A stretch of DNA of 64,000 nt from a virus. Its lineage: Duplodnaviria; Caudoviricetes. Under the pieces are notes generated by a model. That model made no database searches and was not told where the DNA came from. It saw nothing but the letters and a program-made list of their open reading frames with translations. The stretch is taken from the IMG/VR virus record IMGVR_UViG_3300013102_000008, positions 1,501-65,500 of that record, one strand, 5' to 3'. The stretch's first letter is position 1; each line of letters begins with the position of its first letter. Positions 1,900-59,174 of the stretch are shown here, piece after piece. The position numbers and the translations under genes are program-made.

Positions 1900-4800
1900 T
1901 TACGTTGCCATTAATCGCGCCAATTGTCCGGCTACCTTCTGAATATCCGCTTCCTCGCGTATGTGGAACGTGTTACCGGTGAAAACGACCTGACCGCTGT
2001 TACCTCCGCCATTATTACGGTAATCCTTCGCTTCCTCACGGGGAAGTACCGCTTCACCGGAGTGTAACCGAGCAGGATAGTTATTGTATGGTACGTTGTC
2101 GATACCACCGGATTTACCGAGCGCTCTATACGAGAACGCTGAACTCGGAAGCTTATTTCCGGAGATTATATCGGTGGGAGATTTATATGGTGATCCGCCT
2201 TTAGCGGAAGGACCTGTAGAGGGTGCATTTGCTTCTTTATATTCCTTCGCAAAGGAAAGAGAGGCACCATCTTTACCGAGTACTGTTTGAAGGGTCTTTA
2301 CAGAAAAGATACCTTCCAGTATTCCTTCGCCAATTGCCGCACCCATTTTAATCGCGGCAGCAATTAAAGGTTGTGACGCCTGCATACCGGTCGCGAGCAT
2401 ATCAATAGCGGACTTAGCTATCGCAGATATCTTCGCGCTTCCGCCACCCGAAAGCCACTCGTTAAACGTCTTCATAATATCCTCAAATACGAAGCTAATT
2501 TTACTCTTCATATCCGGAAGTTTCTGAAACGCCGGATTATTCGTAAAGTGCTTATCGAGGTAACCGGAAGCTTTCGTAACCATACGCTCCATCGCCGCGG
2601 TAATCTGCGGACTATAGTCTTGAATTAGTTTACCAATACTCTCAGCGAATCGCGTAATCAATGGCATCGTCGGAAGCAACGCAGATATTTGTAACGTCTC
2701 CAACGCACCTCTAAGTTGTTCCACCGCGCCGCCCGCGCCTTCCATTTTCTTCTTAGCGACAGCTAACGCAGTAGTATTCGCCATTTCCCGATTAAACTTC
2801 GTTATTCCCTCTTCGCCTTCTTCGTAAAGGATATTCGCGGCTCTAATTGCGTCCGTACCGAACATCATCTTCAAGGTTAACTGGCGTTGTGCATTCGTCA
2901 TCTTGCTGAGTTTCGTGCGGAGGACTCCGGCAATACTAGACATGTCCTTAATGTTACCTGCGGAATCGTAGAATGCGTTGTTCATTCCATTAGTAGTAAA
3001 TCCGAGTCCATCGAATAACGCTCTCTGCGTTTTAGTAATCGGCTGCAACGTTAGTAACATCTGCTTAAGTGACGTACCTGCGTCTGACGATTTGAGTCCG
3101 TTGTTAGCGAACACACCGAGCGCTAGGTTCGTATCTTTAAATGATAGCCCACTACCCGCCGCCACCGCAGATACTTGCGCCAAGCTTTCCGCTAATTCGC
3201 TAACTCCAGTTGCGGAGGCGTTCGCTGTTCCCGCGAGTATATCCGCTGCTTGTGATGCGCCCATGCCGTCCTTCTTAAACGCGTTAAGCGCCGTAGACAT
3301 AATAACCGCGGATTCCTCTAAGCCAAGTCCGCCCGCTGTCGCAAGGTCAAGCGCTGCTCCGAGTGCGCCGGCTTCTACTTGCGCCGGTTTAAGTCCCGCC
3401 TTGAGAAGTTCCTCTATCGCTTTTCCAGCTTCTAATGCATTATCAGATTGTTACCGTAAAGGCTCTTTATCCTCTACTTCCGGGGCTTTCGCCGCATAAT
3501 AGTATGTCAGTTCATACTCGGCTCAGACTATATCTTCACCCTCGACATTGCTCGGTCGGGTGCGATGCGCTCGTGGGAATTTTGACTGTTCTAGTCTACT
3601 TTTCCTAGTCGTTACACCTTCCATATATTCCTATATGGCTTGGCTCGGTATTAGCATGTTTTTGGCGTAAAAAAAAATAAGCGTTTGTCACGCGCTTATT
3701 TCTAAAAAGTATTCAGTTAGCTGTTCTTCATTATTTTTAGTATATCCGTATATATCATGAAATTCCTTATGGCATATAGCGCATAATGTAGTTCCATTAT
3801 CTACGCATGTACGTAATTCTTCGTATTCTGAGTAATTATATATGTGGTGAGCAATCAAGTTTCCCCCTTGATTATTTCCACAACATTTACATTCGAAGTT
3901 ATCGCGTGTAAATACTTGTACTCGCCAATCCCTATAAGCAGGATACGACCTCTCAGAAATTCGTTCCTCATCACTTTTATTTGGGTCCCACCTTGCATGA
4001 TTAGAACCAACATATATTTCTGATCTTAACTGAGCCGCACACATTGATGAACAACATGGATTTGTCTTTACCTTCTGTTGGCTAGGCGTAGAGTGAAATA
4101 ACTTTCCACAATATGTGCAGTCTATAAAATTACTCAACTTGACTTGTCCCATATCTGAACGACTCTGAATAAGATAACATGAGTGTGAACAAAAGACTCT
4201 GTCACTTTTTATTTCTGATTGTTTCCTCTTAAATTCGATTCCACAAGTAATGCACTTACATATAATGGGCGGCTTATACTTGCTATTATCTTCCCCAATA
4301 AAAAATTTACCAAAGTTAGCTCGAAAGCACTCTTTAGTACAAAAGTGGTATTTATGCTTACTGAGCCTGTATGGTTGAATTTTTATATCTATGCCGCACC
4401 CACTACATAGTGCATCCACTCGATTGTAGTTTGGGTTTCCATCACCTAACATTAGTATCTTTTTATGTTTTGTTCTACATTCTCGGTTGCAGTACAAATT
4501 GATAAATTTAAGCACTTTAGACGGTATTGTATATACGTCCTTTTCACAATAAGCACAATTTACCTTTACTTTTATGCGTCGAGATTCACTAAAACAGGTA
4601 GCACTACAAAACTTAGTATTTTTCTTCGCGTTGAAAAACTCTTTGTTACAAACTTTACACGTTAAAAGATTCTGCTTAGCCCTATTAGCTAATCTACATT
4701 TACGGCAAGTATTCTCGAATCCATCACGTACGCTCTTACTTGGGGAAAAGCAAGAGATATCCAATTCTAATTTACACGATCTACATTCTTTATTCAAATT

Positions 4801-26079: not shown

Positions 26080-26804
26080 TCAGCGGTCACTCCTTCCGTT
26101 GTTAGTTGCGTCATAATCACGTCAATCTGCGCATATAACTCCGCGAGTGTTCCGTCGTTAACTACTTCGTAATCGACCTCGAATCCCTCAACGTGTGACT
26201 CCGTGTCATGCGTTAAGTCGCGTAGATTGAACGTATCAGACGATTTGACTGCGCGGTCGATACGGACGGATTCCGGTGCGGTTACGCGGATGATTACGTA
26301 GGATTCCGAGCGGCAACGGTCATACTCGTTCGGATGCCTTAAATCGCTGATTACGGCGCGGAATGGCGGGTGAAATACTCCCCCGGCGTATACTTTTCGC
26401 GCTACCATTTCGTAGGATTCCATGATATCTTCGAAACACTTCCGCGTCCAAATATCGGGATCACGTTCGCGCATCGTTTGCCCAAACCACTGATATAACT
26501 CGCGCGGCTTTCCGTCAGGCTCACCGAATAATTCGTGTGTATAACGTTTGAGTTCGTCGCCGAACGCGAACCGTGTGTATCCGTAGTTTTGCGTGAGATA
26601 GTCAGCGAGCGCATCTTTTCCACTCCGCATAAGTCCAGTTAAGGCGATGTTTGGCGTGGACTTGGCGGTAACCTGCGTGAGTTTCCGAATCATTGGAGCG
26701 CCCATACAACGTTTATGACCGCTGTACCATACGTCCTCGTGACGGAAACTGTACGGAGAGCTTGCGAACTTTCCGCAGTAATCGCAAGTTTCGGATGTCT
26801 TCAT
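26076..26804 (-). CDS. Deoxynucleoside monophosphate kinase-like protein
   Basis: IALTGLMRSGKD P-loop, AFGDELK, SDLRHPNE, HDTES, VNDGTL. Confidence 0.8.
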   Translation of the reverse strand: MKTSETCDYCGKFASSPYSFRHEDVWYSGHKRCMGAPMIRKLTQVTAKSTPNIALTGLMRSGKDALADYLTQNYGYTRFAFGDELKRYTHELFGEPDGKPRELYQWFGQTMRERDPDIWTRKCFEDIMESYEMVARKVYAGGVFHPPFRAVISDLRHPNEYDRCRSESYVIIRVTAPESVRIDRAVKSSDTFNLRDLTHDTESHVEGFEVDYEVVNDGTLAELYAQIDVIMTQLTTEGVTAE

Positions 26805-49014: not shown

Positions 49015-49246
49015 ATTGCGCTCCTTAAACGCGAATAGCCTCGCGCTTAGTTACGGATCATGGCGATCCTTATCGTATGCTCGGCGTATGAGGTACGCGA
49101 TACATTCGAAGACTTAGCGGAGGTTTTTGTTACGGTGCGGACGATGAGGTGTCCGTATATGGTGCGAAGTGTTGGCGCTGATGGCCGGTGAATGCGAGGT
49201 ATATATTGTGTAAATTTTGTGTTATACTAAGCGGTATGAATTAGTT

Positions 49247-49305
49247 ATACGCGTGTTGCGTATTTGCTATATCCCTATCTTAATACGCGTGGTGCGTATT
49301 GTCAA
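49247..49305 (-). promoter_or_regulatory. Leftward SigA promoter overlapped by two palindromic operators
   Basis: TTGACA(49305-49300)-17 bp-TAAGAT; ATACGC-N5-GCGTAT at 49247-49263 and 49283-49299. Confidence 0.8.
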
Positions 49306-49318
49306 GGAGTGTTTTAAT

Positions 49319-49540
49319 ATGTCGAATAATCAATTTAATATCCGCGTAGCATTGCTGTTATCCGACGCAGGGATAACGCAGAAGGAACTCGCAGCTACAC
49401 TCGGAATAAATCCGCAGACTTTCAACGGTTACATGACCGCATACCGTACGATCCCGTTAGCCACCGTTATTAAAGTAGCGGACCACTTCGGAGTCACTAC
49501 GGATTACCTACTCGGCAGATCCGATACTCCGCGTCCGTAA
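49319..49540 (+). CDS. XRE/Cro-CI family HTH repressor, 73 aa
   Basis: AAGGAG RBS; ITQKELAATLGINPQTFNGY...VADHFGVTTDYLLGRSD. Confidence 0.9.
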   Translation: MSNNQFNIRVALLLSDAGITQKELAATLGINPQTFNGYMTAYRTIPLATVIKVADHFGVTTDYLLGRSDTPRP

Positions 49541-50875: not shown

Positions 50876-51766
50876 TTATTTTTCACGAATTATTTCTGCA
50901 AGTGCCTCATTAATTTTACGTTCGATATTATGGTAATCGTCATATCTAATTCGTAATAATGGGATATTACTAATAGATGAATACTCGTCCTTACGCATGT
51001 CGTGTATTTGTTGACGTTTGAGTGCTCGAATCGCGTGTGCTTTACCTTTACCGGTGAAGTCTACCGGCTTGCTGTGATGTACACCGTCAAACTCAATAAA
51101 TAACGCGTGACTTCCGTCAGGATACGTTACTGCAAAGTCGTAAGATAATAATCCTCCGGAAATTCCTACTAGTTCTTCAATTTTCTCTTCGTGACTAAAC
51201 ATATATCCTAGAAATGTTAAGTAACTACGTATACGCCTTTCGCCTTTAGACATACTGCAGTAAGGACAGCGCGTTCCGCTAGCTACGCGGTATACTGTAG
51301 CACTCCATGAATGCTTACATTCTTCTTCATCACACATCCACCATACCTGATTCCCCGAGCTTGGCATTGTATTTTTCGGAGTGTTTTCTCCGTTTAGGGT
51401 AGGATGCCAAAGTTTAGATACTTCCGGATTTAGATTTGAGAGGTTATGTCCTTGTTCTGCCTTTGTTCTATTTGAGCGTTGTTTGGCGCACGACTTGCAC
51501 AAATCAAGTCCGCTTCTGCGGTTTCTTAATATATTGCTATGGGTTTGCTCCGGTACTTGTTTATGGCATATGTCACATACTTTCGTAAGCGTTATACAAC
51601 TGCACGGAGGAAGGTCTGCAACTTTGACGCGCATGGTGGTACCTCGCTGAACCGTTATTTTACCCCACTTCCCCATTTCCCGCGGGATTGGGTATCCTTT
51701 TGCTTCGAAGTGGACAACATTGTTAGGAGTTAACACGGTGTTGGTATATTCCTCTAGTATTGCCAT
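50876..51766 (-). CDS. Free-standing Zn-ribbon + Vsr/PD-(D/E)XK-like endonuclease (paralog of 58269-59174)
   Basis: WHPTLNG, WWMC....C.HSW, CPYC.MSKGE, YDFA, IEFDG..H, D..K......IPLLRI. Confidence 0.8.
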   Translation of the reverse strand: MAILEEYTNTVLTPNNVVHFEAKGYPIPREMGKWGKITVQRGTTMRVKVADLPPCSCITLTKVCDICHKQVPEQTHSNILRNRRSGLDLCKSCAKQRSNRTKAEQGHNLSNLNPEVSKLWHPTLNGENTPKNTMPSSGNQVWWMCDEEECKHSWSATVYRVASGTRCPYCSMSKGERRIRSYLTFLGYMFSHEEKIEELVGISGGLLSYDFAVTYPDGSHALFIEFDGVHHSKPVDFTGKGKAHAIRALKRQQIHDMRKDEYSSISNIPLLRIRYDDYHNIERKINEALAEIIREK

Positions 51767-51855
51767 ACAAATCACCACCCTTCGTAATCAATTCGTAAAT
51801 ATCCGCCTACAATAATAATGTGCGCGAGTCCTCCGTAATCACACAAACGCGGAAA

Positions 51856-54430: not shown

Positions 54431-55462
54431 TTACGCAGCTACGGCGAGATCGAGCGACAACTCTCCGAAATCAACGCGTATAGGGAACGGTACTCCGATC
54501 GCTTCGCGCCATATTTCGAGTGATGGGCGCTTGTACCCGTAGCGTTCGTTATCCGCGTGTACTTCGTCTATACTGCGTTGATTAGCGAAGCACCAATACG
54601 TGAAGCTGCGAAACTCTTCCGAGGTGAGTCCGTTCTGTTGCGCCAGTTTGACGACTAGCGCGTCGAATGCGGACTGTTCGAGGTCAAAGCGTTGCCTATT
54701 CGCTTCGAACCATTCGAAAGGGTTAGCGTCGGATTTCGACGAGTTGAGCATCCGGGATAATGGCGACATGTTACCTACGTAAGTACCCCCGTGTCCGATT
54801 GATAACGGAATGAAGTGGTCGTCGCATGGCTTTGGTTTTTTACTAAAAACGCAAACCCCTTCCCAACTTTCTAATAAACTGTTCCTTTCCCCTTTATTCC
54901 ATTTAGACGGTAGTAACATTTGAGATGCTCTCCTGTGACTAATGAGCGCTCTTATATTTTCTTGATCCCGCCCTTTTACATAACACCTTTTACAACCTGC
55001 CTCTACCCCCGATCTACTTAGTTTATGTTTACAGAACTCTCTTATTTGCTTTATTTTTCCACATACTGTACAAGTTTTGTATACATACTTAAGGAGTGGG
55101 ATTAATTCGTAGTAGCGTGCATACCCGTAAATACCCTCATAGTAGCTATTCAAAACTGCACTTAGATGGAGGTAATCCTCACCTACTGGTAAAAGCGCGT
55201 AGCCCTCTGTAAAAGCTTCTCGAAATACAGAATCGCAGATGTCTTCACCATACTGTCCTATATAATTTTCGAAAGGCTCCGGCAATACGATCCTCTCGTA
55301 ATCATCATATGCGGTGTATATCTCTATTCCATTTCTTTCTATCGCCCTCTGCATTTCCGAGTGGTGTATACCTAGGGTTATTGCTACGCGGTTCCTTCGT
55401 ATACCTCCATCTAGCAATTCTTGAATCTCATCTAATAAATCATCAGTTCTGCGATAGCCTAT
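54431..55462 (-). CDS. HNH endonuclease (proposed ATA start)
   Basis: CTVCG...CKRC, DDHFIPLSIGHGG..VGNM.PL...LNSSK.D.NPFEW; GGAGGT 6 nt before ATA 55462. Confidence 0.8.
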   Translation of the reverse strand: MGYRRTDDLLDEIQELLDGGIRRNRVAITLGIHHSEMQRAIERNGIEIYTAYDDYERIVLPEPFENYIGQYGEDICDSVFREAFTEGYALLPVGEDYLHLSAVLNSYYEGIYGYARYYELIPLLKYVYKTCTVCGKIKQIREFCKHKLSRSGVEAGCKRCYVKGRDQENIRALISHRRASQMLLPSKWNKGERNSLLESWEGVCVFSKKPKPCDDHFIPLSIGHGGTYVGNMSPLSRMLNSSKSDANPFEWFEANRQRFDLEQSAFDALVVKLAQQNGLTSEEFRSFTYWCFANQRSIDEVHADNERYGYKRPSLEIWREAIGVPFPIRVDFGELSLDLAVAA

Positions 55463-55597: not shown

Positions 55598-55659
55598 TAA
55601 TAGGAAGCTACGTGGATCGGCGGACGAATACGCTACACCTCCGAATACATACGATTGAT

Positions 55660-55915
55660 ACCGCGATTAATATTAATAGTAACGGTAATATGCGTTTGAT
55701 TATGTGATTAATATCGTTGTTAATACTCCGATTAATCACGCAGTTAATCATAATGATAATACTATTATAATCATACGTTTGTTATTAATAACAATCATTT
55801 ACATAATTACAACGTTGATAATGTTATTAATATTATGACCAATACTACCATTAAATAACTATTAATTTTGTTGTAGTAATTAACATTATTTGTTATAATA
55901 TAATTAATACTAATA
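55660..55915. repeat. AT-rich degenerate repeat tract, candidate parS centromere / par promoter
   Basis: Many ATTAAT(A/C)/TAATA units directly upstream of parA. Confidence 0.55.
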
Positions 55916-55923
55916 TAGAGGAG

Positions 55924-56718
55924 ATGATTGATATGGCGGTAGTTTTGGCGGTATCCACGAATAAAGGCGGAGTATTAAAAACCTCGTTAACTACGAATCT
56001 CGCGGGCCTACTCGCGAAGGAATCGCGTGTACTCATCGTTGACGCGGATAATCAGGGGAATGTATCGTCGAGTTTCGGAAAGAATGCGGATCGGTATACG
56101 ACTAACTTATACGATGTACTCGTAAATGGAGTGCCGGCAGCGGACGCTATCGTTAACGTATATAAGAACATCGATATGCTACCGTCCAATGACGAAATGG
56201 CTTCGTTTGAGACGGATGTTATAACGGACATCGCGAAGTATAAGGATCTGTTCTTCCTCATGCGGAACACGCTCGCCAGTATACGCGATAGCTACGATTA
56301 CATCCTCGTAGATACTCCGCCTAATCTCGGGTTAGTTACGGGTAACGTGTTAACTTTCGCAGATCGCGTTTTAATACCGTTTCAGCCGGAGACATATTCG
56401 CAGCGGTCGCTAGTTAAGGTATTAAAGGCGATTGCTGGCGTACGGTTATCGCGCAACCCGGAACTGGCGATACTTGGCGTAGTGGGAACGCTAGTGGATT
56501 CCAGGACATCGCTACATGCCGAGTTGTTATCGGGATTACGTAAGAAATGCTTAGCGGAGGATATAAAGTGTTTTGATACGGTGATACCGCGATCCATACG
56601 ATATGCATCTGCGGTCGCATACGATGAGTTACCGGCTACACTTGCGGAAGCTAGGCCCGCGTTAATTAAAGCATATTCCGATTTACTAGCGGAAATAAAG
56701 GAGGAGTTAATGTGGTAA
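55924..56718 (+). CDS. parA: ParA/Soj-family partition ATPase (type Ib, no N-terminal HTH)
   Basis: NKGGVLKTS deviant Walker A, VDADNQGN, YDYILVDTPPNLG, IPRSIR. Confidence 0.95.
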   Translation: MIDMAVVLAVSTNKGGVLKTSLTTNLAGLLAKESRVLIVDADNQGNVSSSFGKNADRYTTNLYDVLVNGVPAADAIVNVYKNIDMLPSNDEMASFETDVITDIAKYKDLFFLMRNTLASIRDSYDYILVDTPPNLGLVTGNVLTFADRVLIPFQPETYSQRSLVKVLKAIAGVRLSRNPELAILGVVGTLVDSRTSLHAELLSGLRKKCLAEDIKCFDTVIPRSIRYASAVAYDELPATLAEARPALIKAYSDLLAEIKEELMW

Positions 56719-57131
56719 GAAAACGTAAGACTGCGATGGATTTCGATGCGGTTGCGGATAGTAATGTAATTAATATTGTACGCGAGGATATCGTTGATAC
56801 TGAGGATAATACGGATACTGACGTTGCTAATAAGATTAATACTACAGATGATACCGTTGTTGATACGGAGATTGTTATCAAAGATGAGAGTAAGGTTGAT
56901 ACTAAGCCTATAATTAATATTGATCACAACGTTAATCATAATAACGCTATCGACCACATACTTAATAATGAGCGCGTGAAATCTACGCGTGTTCAGCGTG
57001 GTTTATACTTGGATCGCGATATCGATGCGGTGCTGAGCCGGTTGTTGAAGAAAGGCGGGAAGGGCGCTAAGTCCGATATTATTAACGATTTGCTACGCGC
57101 TGCTTTTGTGGATAGAGGATTATTAAAGTAA
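56712..57131 (+). CDS. Partition adaptor with disordered acidic N-terminus and C-terminal RHH-like domain
   Basis: Overlaps parA stop; QRGLYLDRDIDAVL......KGAKSDIINDLLRAAF. Confidence 0.7.
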   Translation: MVRKRKTAMDFDAVADSNVINIVREDIVDTEDNTDTDVANKINTTDDTVVDTEIVIKDESKVDTKPIINIDHNVNHNNAIDHILNNERVKSTRVQRGLYLDRDIDAVLSRLLKKGGKGAKSDIINDLLRAAFVDRGLLK

Positions 57132-57876
57132 TACCGCTGTGGATAAGTAGCTTAAGGAGTTTCGCGCTTAAGTTACTTTTTGAGTTCTAACATATCCGCC
57201 TTCGGCGGTTCCACTCCGTTTGCTTCACGGAATTAATAACGAATAACACGTTATCAATGCCGATCGCTTCACGTAGCGGCTATTCTTTCTACCGCTTACT
57301 ACATCCTCTTTTATTTATCTCTATAGTAAAACTTTTGCTTGACGGTGTAGGTCTAAACCTTTACGCTTTATGGCTCTGATTAGGAAATGGACATAGGTTT
57401 GCCCTTACATGCGACCATAAAGCATTATTGCTTCAAGATCACACATAAGAGCAAACCATACATTCAATACGCCCCGTAGGTCGTCATGAGGTTTCTGTAT
57501 CTATACCCGGTCGCAGTTTTTACACCGCCAATACCTTGATCCCATCAGATCTTCCCAATGGTTGCGTCTCCGCTTGGTATTGTGCCGCGACCTCCTCTCG
57601 GAAGTAGCAAGATCGTCCTCTCCTGACCGCACACCGTCACCGTTAGTCACACTCGGGCGTGGGTATAGTTACGCCTTTAATGAGTGTACGTTAGGATTGT
57701 ATTGTTTGCGGCGGTCCCTAACTTGACCCTTAGCGGTTTTTACCGTGTTCTCGCTGCACTCCACGTTCGGCGCTATCCTATTTTTGCAATAGGAAAGTAG
57801 GCCCTCGGCATCTCGCTTTTTCGCGAAATCCGGAGCATCGCCGGTTATTTAGTTTTAGTATGTAAGTAAACGAAAA

Positions 57877-57921
57877 GGAGCCTCGATCCTATTCGCGTGA
57901 TAACGAAGGAATCGAGGCTCC
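57877..57921. terminator. Strong hairpin with T-runs on both sides (terminator/attenuator)
   Basis: GGAGCCTCGAT...ATCGAGGCTCC 11-bp stem. Confidence 0.7.
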
Positions 57922-57987
57922 ACTTTTATAATAACATTTATCACATATAACGTTGTCCGTAGACAATAATAATGTTATACTAGATTT

Positions 57988-58093
57988 AGAAAGTCATTGT
58001 TTTAGTGCGCCCGTTTCTTGTCCGTTTGGCGGATACGATACGGCACAGGGTTGGTAGCCCGAGCCGCACTTGAAACAGTGGCTTAATCTTTTT
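57988..58093 (+). ncRNA. Candidate ~105-nt antisense copy-control RNA
   Basis: Promoter TTGTCC-17 bp-TGnTATACT (57953-57981); closing stem 57991-58002/58073-58084 with G.U pairs; UUUGG and UUGGUAG loops; 3' U-run. Confidence 0.65.
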
Positions 58094-58204
58094 GTCTAAC
58101 TTATGAATCTAGCATAACACAGTCTAGTAATTAGTGGAAGATAAAGTTATACACAATGTGCGTAAAAACTCGGAATAAGAAAAATCAACCTGTGGATAAA
58201 CGAA

Positions 58205-58252
58205 AAAAGGTGCAGACTCAACGAAAGTTACCTCCGCGAATCTGCACCTTTT
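58205..58252 (-). terminator. Terminator after endonuclease gene
   Basis: AAAAGGTGCAGA...TCTGCACCTTTT inverted repeat. Confidence 0.6.
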
Positions 58253-58268
58253 ATATTTACTTTACCCT

Positions 58269-59174
58269 CTAACATGGTATCTGATCCCCGCGGAGTACCT
58301 TTGCCAGTGCTTCATTAATTAATCGTTCTGTGTCGTCAATGTCCGTATATGCGATGCGGAGTAATGGGATGTTGTGGAGACGAGCATATTCGTTTTTCCT
58401 GCGGTCGTGTGTTTGTTGGATGCGGAATTGTTCGAGCGCGCTACCCACACCTTCTCCGGCAAAGTCCGTAGGTTCGAAATGGCCGATCCCGTCAAACTCT
58501 ATAAGGAGTGCCACGTATCCGTTATCATATTTGATAGCAGCGTCAAATCTGAGGTCACCTCCACCTTTTCCTGTAAGACCATGCATAGTCTCCTCAAGCG
58601 AGTAATTATAACCGAGGAATTGAAGGTACTCACGAATTTTACGCTCACCTTTCGAAAGTGAACACGATGGACAACGGGTGCCACGTGTTACATGCTGAAC
58701 AAGCGCTCTCCACTCGTAATTGCATCCATCTTCATTACACATCCACCATCGCTTACGGTTTGATCCTGGAACTATTTCGTCCGGCTTGAGCGATCCGTTT
58801 AATGTGGGGTGCCAGAGCGCAACTACTTCGGGGTGCTTAGTTACAAGGTTGTTTCCGGATTTCGCTTTACGAAGTGACATCGCGTGCTGTGCGCAGGGTA
58901 GGCATCTGTCAACTCCATCGACATCGCGGCTGCGGAGAATGATCTTATAGTACTGCTCCCGCGTGTGTCCGCCACAATCGTCGCAAATCTTCGTCAATCG
59001 TACGTCGCCCCCAACGGTCAAATCGATAATATTAACGGTAATAACGGCACCTCGCACTATACTCATTCTCCCCCGCGAGTCTTTTTTCCTAGGGATATGA
59101 TACCCAAGCGACTCATAATGTGAAATATTACGTGCACCCAACGTAATCTCCACTTCCGTCTCCAATATCGCCAC
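58269..59174 (-). CDS. Free-standing Zn-ribbon + Vsr/PD-(D/E)XK-like endonuclease (paralog of 50876-51766)
   Basis: MAILE, LTKICDDC, WHPTLNG, WWMC, CPSCSLSKGE, IEFDG.GH, NIPLLRI. Confidence 0.8.
   Translation of the reverse strand: MAILETEVEITLGARNISHYESLGYHIPRKKDSRGRMSIVRGAVITVNIIDLTVGGDVRLTKICDDCGGHTREQYYKIILRSRDVDGVDRCLPCAQHAMSLRKAKSGNNLVTKHPEVVALWHPTLNGSLKPDEIVPGSNRKRWWMCNEDGCNYEWRALVQHVTRGTRCPSCSLSKGERKIREYLQFLGYNYSLEETMHGLTGKGGGDLRFDAAIKYDNGYVALLIEFDGIGHFEPTDFAGEGVGSALEQFRIQQTHDRRKNEYARLHNIPLLRIAYTDIDDTERLINEALAKVLRGDQIPC

Follow-up and report, generated by a model that had tools for sequence, protein, structure and literature searches.

Plasmids of the ColE1/pMB1 type encode no plasmid replication protein (Rep); they use an RNA II preprimer and an antisense RNA I, and carry a DnaA box near the origin. 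To our knowledge, Rep-independent, RNA-driven plasmid replication is textbook material only for these ColE1-type plasmids of enterobacteria, and we know of no explanation, since 1995, for the Rep-less origin of the Bacillus plasmid pLS20. Here, we describe a gene-free region at 57132–58268 of a 64,000-nucleotide (nt) stretch of DNA of a Paenibacillus phage, hereafter the window, which comprises bases 1501–65500 of a 65.5-kilobase (kb) virus record (IMGVR_UViG_3300013102_000008). The best reading of its sequence is that the region represents a complete copy of a maintenance and replication module widespread on Paenibacillus plasmids, lying at the position which the integrase module occupies in Bacillus phage phi18-2.

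The origin of pLS20 has been reported as a gene-free stretch of ~1.1 kb with adjoining partition genes, a DnaA box, many dyads and an unknown mechanism. A host-dependent, Rep-less origin with DnaA sites was proposed, and this origin type is reported from Bacillus only (PMC8557374). ARRPOF and PAGEV are large structured motifs in gene-free plasmid regions which are needed, or predicted to be needed, for replication, and a 1-kb gene-free region was reported to suffice in pKH9 (PMC5737381). In pIP501, pAMbeta1 and pT181, where antisense RNA drives transcription attenuation of rep, a countertranscript covers the leader, and an intrinsic terminator separates it from the element under control. The anatomy of the module described here combines the logic of ColE1, the terminator placement of pIP501/pT181 and a pLS20-like layout, without homology to any of them.

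Between the stop codon of a 139-amino-acid (aa) adaptor open reading frame (ORF) at 57131 and the end of an HNH endonuclease gene at 58269, only three ORFs of 40–54 aa were detected. The ORF-free stretch of ~1.1 kb recognized in an earlier analysis (hereafter the sequence-only reading) was therefore confirmed. Among relatives, ORF-like matches are spread over several frames, indicating conservation of DNA rather than of coding sequence. The DnaA box TTATNCACA occurs seven times in the window compared with 2.0 +/- 1.5 expected (none of 100 shuffles reached seven), and three of these boxes (57138, 58147 and 58191) lie within the gene-free region, exactly where they had been predicted. The other four consensus boxes are found at 26536, 48125, 52226 and 62578, with 48125 and 52226 in the early/replication region. 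A direct-repeat search of the region revealed no iteron arrays. The sequence-only reading had also proposed a comparison with Rfam families (ROOL, GOLLD, ARRPOF and plasmid antisense RNAs); this gave nothing at the gathering threshold in the window. No plasmid RNA family was among the nine matches listed at E-values up to 10 for 56900–58400, and the sub-threshold matches were rejected as chance, miRNA- or terminator-like.

The region is organized around a proposed long leftward RNA of ~0.9 kb (57190–58104, - strand), which is based on fold asymmetry and covariation and whose two ends are predicted. It would consist of a 5' leader, a terminator, a conserved block, a structured body and a 3' domain. 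The block (CAATAGGAAAGTAGGCCCTCG, 57787–57807 on the + strand; CGAGGGCCUACUUUCCUAUUG on the RNA strand) was located by pattern matches, is invariant among relatives and served as the anchor of our comparisons.

An antisense small RNA of ~105 nt (57990–58097, + strand) is fully complementary to the 5' end (~100 nt) of the leftward RNA. It was recovered with a covariance model (R1, 68.4 bits) and adopts a rod in its minimum free energy (MFE) structure, in agreement with the convergent small RNA that had been predicted from the window by itself. To build R1, a structure was drawn by hand for 21 sequences, as RNAalifold predicted almost nothing or nothing from the raw MAFFT alignment. The model gave 33 matches in 44 sources, every one on the strand expected from the block. 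In the resulting alignment, which was fitted to the model and hence favors structure, 84.7% of cells pair compared with 74.9% in shuffles, and 21 of 29 pairs have changed on both sides. None of 500 shuffles reached any of the five measures, and slid controls paired at 30–48%. Two pairs are dominated by U.G (in 19 and 21 sequences), which would be A.C if read on the other strand, and this identifies the + strand as that of the small RNA. Its loop is GGGUUGGUAGCCC, in which we take UUGG to be a YUNR-like motif. A promoter (TTGTCC-17-TATACT with an upstream TG, 57953–57981, + strand) was the sole one called by a consensus scan of 57000–58350. Tandem arrangements were observed in some relatives: locus L022 has two small RNAs (2470–2573 and 2768–2873), and L021 and L025 have two blocks each. 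For L012, a 158-nt contig within 4266–4423, the small-RNA and leader region of that locus, was found in each of two oligo-dT RNA-seq runs from the same study; such contigs speak for presence in RNA libraries and not for transcription, strand or ends.

The leftward RNA would start near 58104 from a promoter at 58111–58139 (- strand) with an extended -10 element (TGTGTTATGCT, 58111–58119) and a weak -35 element (TTCCAC). This promoter had been proposed previously. Its extended -10 element is kept as TGTGnTAtnnT, just beyond the small-RNA terminator, in at least 11 relatives (alignment, by eye), although the consensus scan did not call the promoter because of its weak -35 element. Upstream of it, the box scan located two DnaA boxes (58147–58155, + strand; 58191–58199, - strand); among 26 scanned loci, a promoter-side box was otherwise seen in L005 only. 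By eye, a palindrome that could be an operator was also noticed upstream of this promoter in the alignment. A MerR-like helix-turn-helix (HTH) protein with a long coiled coil (171–252 aa), encoded at varying positions in seven loci (L001, L003, L009, L012, L013, L017 and L021) and not in the phage, could be the repressor for such CTAGA-type palindromes. Further out, alignments and the sequence show a two-way terminator hairpin after the HNH endonuclease gene (58207–58252), which would shield the module from read-through.

Downstream of the antisense target, the RNA encounters a G+C-rich, intrinsic-terminator-like hairpin (57877–57921, - strand) which lies between this target and the RNA body and is a candidate attenuator. 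The hairpin, already noted in the sequence-only reading, is present in the - strand fold, and its position is conserved across relatives, ~70–100 nt further on. Among 36 relatives, 23 have a U run after the hairpin on the - strand and 3 a T run after it on the + strand, counts obtained with a crude hairpin finder that chose the wrong hairpin in some members, including the window. In the MFE structure of the full leader of the window, the terminator forms without the small RNA.

The block pairs with a conserved GUCAAGC motif (helix 2 of alignment A8), weakly so in the window. Next to it lies a conserved 5' domain of the long RNA (57692–57788, - strand), detected with a second covariance model (R2, 47.3 bits, E-value 5.6e-11). 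R2 has 26 matches; 14 of 16 pairs show double changes, 79.3% of cells pair compared with 64.9% in shuffles, and the covariation score was reached in none of 500 shuffles. A candidate pseudoknot around GAGAACACGGTAAAAAC in this domain (CGUGG/CCACG) was recognized by eye only in alignment A10, where one clear compensatory change (C-G to U-A) occurs, in L018 and L052.

The fold of 57150–57925 is much more stable than expected on the - strand (-276.1 kcal/mol, z-score -8.6) and less so on the + strand (-233.7 kcal/mol, z-score -3.3), a difference caused by G.U pairs. The ~700 nt of dense - strand helices described by the sequence-only reading were thus recovered. Besides the window, the subgroup alignment (A8) comprised the plasmid of Paenibacillus sp. 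RUD330, a metagenome contig and three plasmids of the P. polymyxa type that are similar to each other, representing about four lineages. RNAalifold predicted 101 pairs, 39 of which have compensatory double changes compared with 17.2 +/- 2.9 in shuffles, and pairing reached 90.4% compared with 80.4% in shuffles (0 of 500 shuffles; slid controls, 31–42%); these pairing and covariation figures are inflated, as the structure was derived from the same six sequences. Taken together with the small RNA, the check for covariation in homologs which had been suggested earlier supports both RNAs.

Individual helices of the body fared differently. A long hairpin in the fold (57396–57457, - strand) includes the 16-base-pair (bp) helix previously singled out for its strand-specific pairs: all 16 positions pair on the - strand, three of them as G.U (A.C on the + strand). 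Relatives keep a hairpin here, with compensatory changes in helices 14 and 15, but the outer 16-bp stem is specific to the window. A 10-bp pseudoknot and an 8-bp long-range pairing from the same reading are exact in the window, but only 2–5 of 10 and 3–5 of 8 positions, respectively, pair in the five aligned relatives, so neither is conserved. In the 3' domain, a conserved hairpin of the CAACGTG..TTTCGTTG type (57236–57252, - strand; helix 19 of A8, window copy assigned by eye) was detected; a regular-expression search located the motif in 12 of 35 relatives, and some members carry it beyond their DnaA boxes.

The distal end of the long RNA has features of an origin. Exact DnaA boxes number 15 per 52.0 kb near the module compared with 8 per 209.4 kb elsewhere in the loci, an approximately eightfold enrichment, and a box at -649 to -1025 from the block is present in 11 of 26 loci. 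Among the members with enough flanking sequence, 25 of 35 have a G-rich tract (GTAGGGGYGGGYGNGGGGAG) on the RNA strand, mostly ~630–730 nt after the block (526–962 overall), and next to it a hairpin that ends in a short run of U. In most of them, two DnaA-box-like sequences in inverted orientation begin 70–79 nt after this tract and are ~27–31 nt apart; a box with at most one mismatch was detected in 22 of 35 members. In the window, two boxes on the - strand at the distal RNA end (57103–57146), CTATCCACA at 57103–57111 with one mismatch and TTATCCACA at 57138–57146, are 31 nt apart and at the matching distance.

Such an arrangement could also be explained by an origin that acts at the DNA level only, through DnaA boxes, hairpins and host factors, with the RNAs merely regulating it by transcriptional activation or interference and the long RNA playing no part of its own in priming or structure. 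The fixed spacing of the box pair from the RNA end fits this idea, as do the CAACGTG..CGTTG hairpins which lie beyond the boxes, and possibly outside the transcript, in some members, and the host-dependent Rep-less origin with DnaA sites proposed for pLS20 (PMC8557374). Mere transcription, however, needs none of the RNA-strand structure that is kept over ~600–900 nt with compensatory changes, and a further RNA fold, EGFOA, is embedded in one subgroup. We therefore consider an origin of this kind improbable.

EGFOA (RF02955) was found inside the long RNA, on the same strand, in four relatives (61–77 bits): L004 (3610–3741), L005 (3608–3738), L012 (5351–5458) and L025 (648–780), upstream of the G-rich tract. 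No match was obtained in the window even at E-values up to 10. EGFOA has been described as a putative small RNA of unknown function from unusually large gene-free regions which forms trimers or dimers, one of two constructs for cryogenic electron microscopy being labeled Pae (bioRxiv 10.64898/2026.07.01.735769). With ~110 nt, it accounts for a single domain, present in one subtype, and not for the whole module. The EGFOA part of L012 is covered by contigs of 261 and 198 nt from two RNA-library runs of uncertain kind.

Compared with ColE1, the module shares a structured antisense RNA of ~105 nt complementary to the first ~100 nt of a long pre-RNA, the proposed independence from a Rep, DnaA boxes near the presumed origin and, in most family members, a G-rich RNA stretch near the RNA end. 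It differs in having no sequence or Rfam similarity, a Gram-positive host, a terminator between the target and the RNA body, and a longer RNA with conserved long-range helices, the G tract being missing from the window copy. The countertranscript on the leader and the intrinsic terminator upstream of the controlled element are as in pIP501, pAMbeta1 and pT181, as is the possible operator palindrome upstream of the promoter, and in loci L015 and L021 a putative initiator is indeed encoded after this cassette. The window and most relatives differ in that a conserved non-coding RNA follows and no rep ORF, and no consistent anti-terminator pairing was found among the 21 members searched. The layout of ~1.1 kb without genes beside partition genes and with DnaA boxes resembles that of pLS20. 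When the pLS20 origin locus (L056, taken from NC_015148) was searched, R1, R2 and BLAST gave no match, and it has no Rfam match either. The parallels to ColE1 and pLS20 drawn by the sequence-only reading hold for the layout; neither the pLS20 origin nor ColE1 RNA I was found to be homologous. L056 contains a G+C-rich stretch of ~350 nt (~3210–3560; the record is typed as 38% G+C) with many short helices and a DnaA box, which looks like a structured RNA. ARRPOF and PAGEV, the nearest published idea, resemble the module as large structured motifs from plasmid regions without genes. They are from other phyla, neither was matched here with Rfam, and the published section on them describes no antisense/terminator cassette (PMC5737381).

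To analyze the distribution of the module, we first compared the region with plasmids by BLAST. A single match was obtained, on the plasmid of Paenibacillus sp. RUD330 (8.3 kb), where it lies in a gap of ~1.7 kb without genes; this only close relative at the DNA level is 76% identical over ~150 nt, and a pairwise alignment shows an identical order of parts over the whole length. Onward BLAST from RUD330 and another member retrieved 14 distinct PLSDB plasmids, all from Paenibacillus, 13 of which have nothing annotated beneath the match. An exact scan for the block (CAATARGAAANNARGCCYTCG) plus a T run in one genome per species (185,579 genomes) detected 22 stretches. Nineteen are from Paenibacillus, on 18 contigs of 2,984–111,182 bp including three named plasmids, and one further stretch is in a metagenome-assembled genome of Bacillus sp. 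Two Bacteroidota pattern hits (L020 and L027) were dropped as chance and L038 as unrelated. The block pattern, used because a longer exact core pattern had no match in the viral and genome collections, also occurred in 9 metagenome contigs and in no other IMG/VR contig. Of 93 genomes of one GTDB genus, 9 contain the block when no more than one mismatch is allowed, the only level taken as real because two mismatches were as noisy as the control.

Other searches remained negative: BLAST of the region against phages gave no match, BLAST of the window region against 401 Paenibacillaceae genomes found the RUD330 plasmid only, and R1 detected only the centre genome among 151 sampled Bacilli genomes (0 of 150 others). 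After removal of duplicates, 43 block-bearing segments remained; by BLAST of their left parts, 34 of them form one cluster, and the window and RUD330 form a second. Within the collections searched, these sequence matches place the module on Paenibacillus plasmids and contigs of plasmid size only. No description of a Paenibacillus replicon of this kind was found in the literature.

We further examined proteins encoded by the carriers. No Pfam Rep family was detected in the 8.3-kb RUD330 plasmid, pPpR531 or pUY79, the 16.9-kb P. peoriae plasmid has no annotated Rep, and 50 ORFs of at least 150 aa in 13 loci matched 29 Pfam families, of which the 25 listed include no Rep family. The record of pPpR531 (L003, NZ_CP097768.1; 9,735 bp) consists of two exact head-to-tail copies that repeat every 4,868 bp, implying a true plasmid unit of ~4.9 kb.

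In L015 and L021, the block is followed by a primase-like protein (489 aa in L021, 4699–6168 on the - strand, preceded by a ribosome-binding site; partial in L015). The two proteins are 61% identical and have weak matches to Replicase, RepB_primase and AEP (E-values 0.0012–0.085). The window has no ORF with a ribosome-binding site after the block. The small RNA, terminator and block are thus a portable control cassette whose cargo, where weakly recognizable, resembles a replication primase. In three other relatives, a small ORF with a good ribosome-binding site separates the block from the RNA body: L012 (4708–5049, + strand, 113 aa), L025 (1048–1299, - strand, 83 aa) and L011 (3498–3710, - strand, 70 aa). 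The L012 and L025 products are basic and have only weak, sub-threshold zinc-ribbon matches.

In the phage, the module lies beside partition genes. parA (55924–56718, + strand) encodes a partition ATPase (Pfam AAA_31, 8e-43; also CbiA and ParA) and is directly followed by the 139-aa adaptor ORF (56712–57131, + strand), which matched no Pfam or PHROG family and for which we infer a DNA-binding role; a small ORF follows parA in five relatives as well. Upstream of parA, an array of TTAAT-type repeats (55640–55910; direct-repeat families D1, D2 and D4, ~12-nt spacing) is probably the centromere of the partition system and would be bound by the adaptor. A hairpin with a T run (57150–57181, + strand), the first hairpin of the + strand fold and evident in the sequence itself, is the probable terminator of the parA operon.

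Since the record ends share a 123-base repeat, the assembly is circular. Nearly all phage genes are on the - strand, and parA and the 139-aa ORF are the only sizeable + strand genes near the module. The genes include those with structural and lysis domains in Pfam (tail fibre, Mu Gp48-like baseplate, M15 endolysin), a replication set (a family A polymerase, PolA; a DnaB-like helicase; an IstB/DnaC-like loader; a Toprim primase), and a ribonucleotide reductase, a thymidylate synthase and a RuvC-like resolvase. The sequence-only reading had left room for an integrase in the part of the genome outside its view; the complete phage genome encodes none, with no match to the tyrosine/serine integrase families PF00589, PF00239 and PF07508. 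By PolA, the closest annotated phage is phi18-2 (67% identity), in which regulators and a tyrosine recombinase sit between the lysis and replication genes. The corresponding interval in the present phage holds the repeat array, parA, the adaptor and the RNA module instead. Structural, lysis and partition genes are thereby united on one complete replicon without an integrase, the gene content used to recognize phage-plasmids. A Cro/CI-type HTH regulator (49217–49540, + strand), encoded on the strand opposite to its neighbors, may be the lysogeny repressor.

Around the module, there are three endonuclease genes (50876–51778, 54431–55417 and 58269–59174): a paralogous pair of the DUF4379 zinc-finger/HNH homing type and an endonuclease VII-like gene. 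The neighborhood looks like a hot spot of gene exchange. With HNH and endonuclease VII-like genes on its flanks and only one close DNA relative (76% over ~150 nt), the phage copy might be regarded as inert plasmid DNA captured by recombination into a variable region. We think this very improbable: all parts are intact and in order, the small RNA and the 5' domain still score 68 and 47 bits, respectively, the parA operon is intact with its repeat array, and no integrase offers another route to lysogeny.

On balance, what the sequence comparisons suggest is that the region is probably, if not securely, a Rep-independent, transcription-dependent, antisense-controlled replicon serving a plasmid prophage. 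Replicon function, attenuation and a priming or activation step are what we infer from the anatomy, and they may work together as follows. The conserved extended -10 element near 58111–58119 would start the leftward RNA. The small RNA (57990–58097) would set the copy number, probably by favoring stops at the terminator (57877–57921). RNA that reads through would fold (~0.7 kb, conserved) and run to the DnaA boxes at 57103–57146, where transcription or the RNA itself, as an R-loop or primer, may open the origin, so that host DnaA, helicase and a Pol I-type polymerase could act there with no need for a plasmid Rep. Together, parA, the adaptor, the repeat array and the module would keep the prophage as a plasmid.

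Several observations weigh against this interpretation. The antisense RNA, leftward promoter, terminator and long non-coding RNA proposed by the sequence-only reading do form one conserved module, but a search for anti-terminator pairing between the leader and the terminator arm in 21 members was negative overall (mean z-score -0.48, two members below -2). The window and its subgroup lack the G-rich tract. Two larger carriers have a typed or annotated Rep: the 34.8-kb P. brasilensis plasmid has a gene for replication initiator protein A adjoining the module, and the 103-kb P. larvae plasmid is typed as rep_cluster_2241; the module need not be the sole replicon of these two. Many of the loci that were analyzed span only 8 kb of contigs of 10–16 kb, and the hypothetical proteins of small plasmids could be unrecognized initiators. 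The phage encodes a DnaB-like helicase, a loader, a primase and PolA, with which the prophage might be replicated independently of the module. Finally, parA adjoins the module in eight compared loci in varying orientation (convergent in the window, upstream in L016), and in four of these eight (L008, L011, L022 and L024) it can be read as lying directly downstream on the RNA strand, where it also lies in pPlas2 and the P. brasilensis plasmid; the long RNA could therefore also be a par leader.

This last point leads to a different explanation, in which the module is a regulatory or effector RNA locus unrelated to replication (a parA leader, an incompatibility or exclusion element, or a defence RNA), and replication depends on an unrecognized protein or on the phage's own genes. 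Besides the same-strand parA of several relatives, the small carriers with hypothetical proteins, the MerR-like protein of seven loci, the full replication set of the phage and the Reps of some large carriers agree with it. Yet parA varies in position and orientation, the carriers have no protein family that all of them share, an origin is suggested by the geometry of the DnaA boxes and by the G-rich tract, and the cassette precedes a primase-like protein in L015 and L021. We regard a purely regulatory locus as unlikely and retain the antisense-controlled replicon as the preferred interpretation.

A more far-reaching version is possible, and we offer it tentatively and with some doubt: the folded RNA of ~0.7–0.9 kb, with its G-rich end and the DnaA boxes, may replace Rep in opening and priming the origin, with the antisense RNA setting the copy number and EGFOA serving in one subtype, and phages may swap their integrase for such a replicon. 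If true, no earlier RNA-initiated theta replicon would be known from Gram-positive bacteria, and a function would be assigned to the orphan EGFOA motif, which is here placed within a defined transcript beside an origin-like site. Next to ColE1, the module would represent a second, unrelated and far more structured system, with ~40 natural variants to compare. The smallest carrier, of 4.9 kb, makes it directly testable, and the primase-driving relative provides a natural contrast. The module could also supply a compact replicon for Paenibacillus genetics. As for the phage, it has apparently traded integration for a plasmid lifestyle by means of a non-coding replicon.

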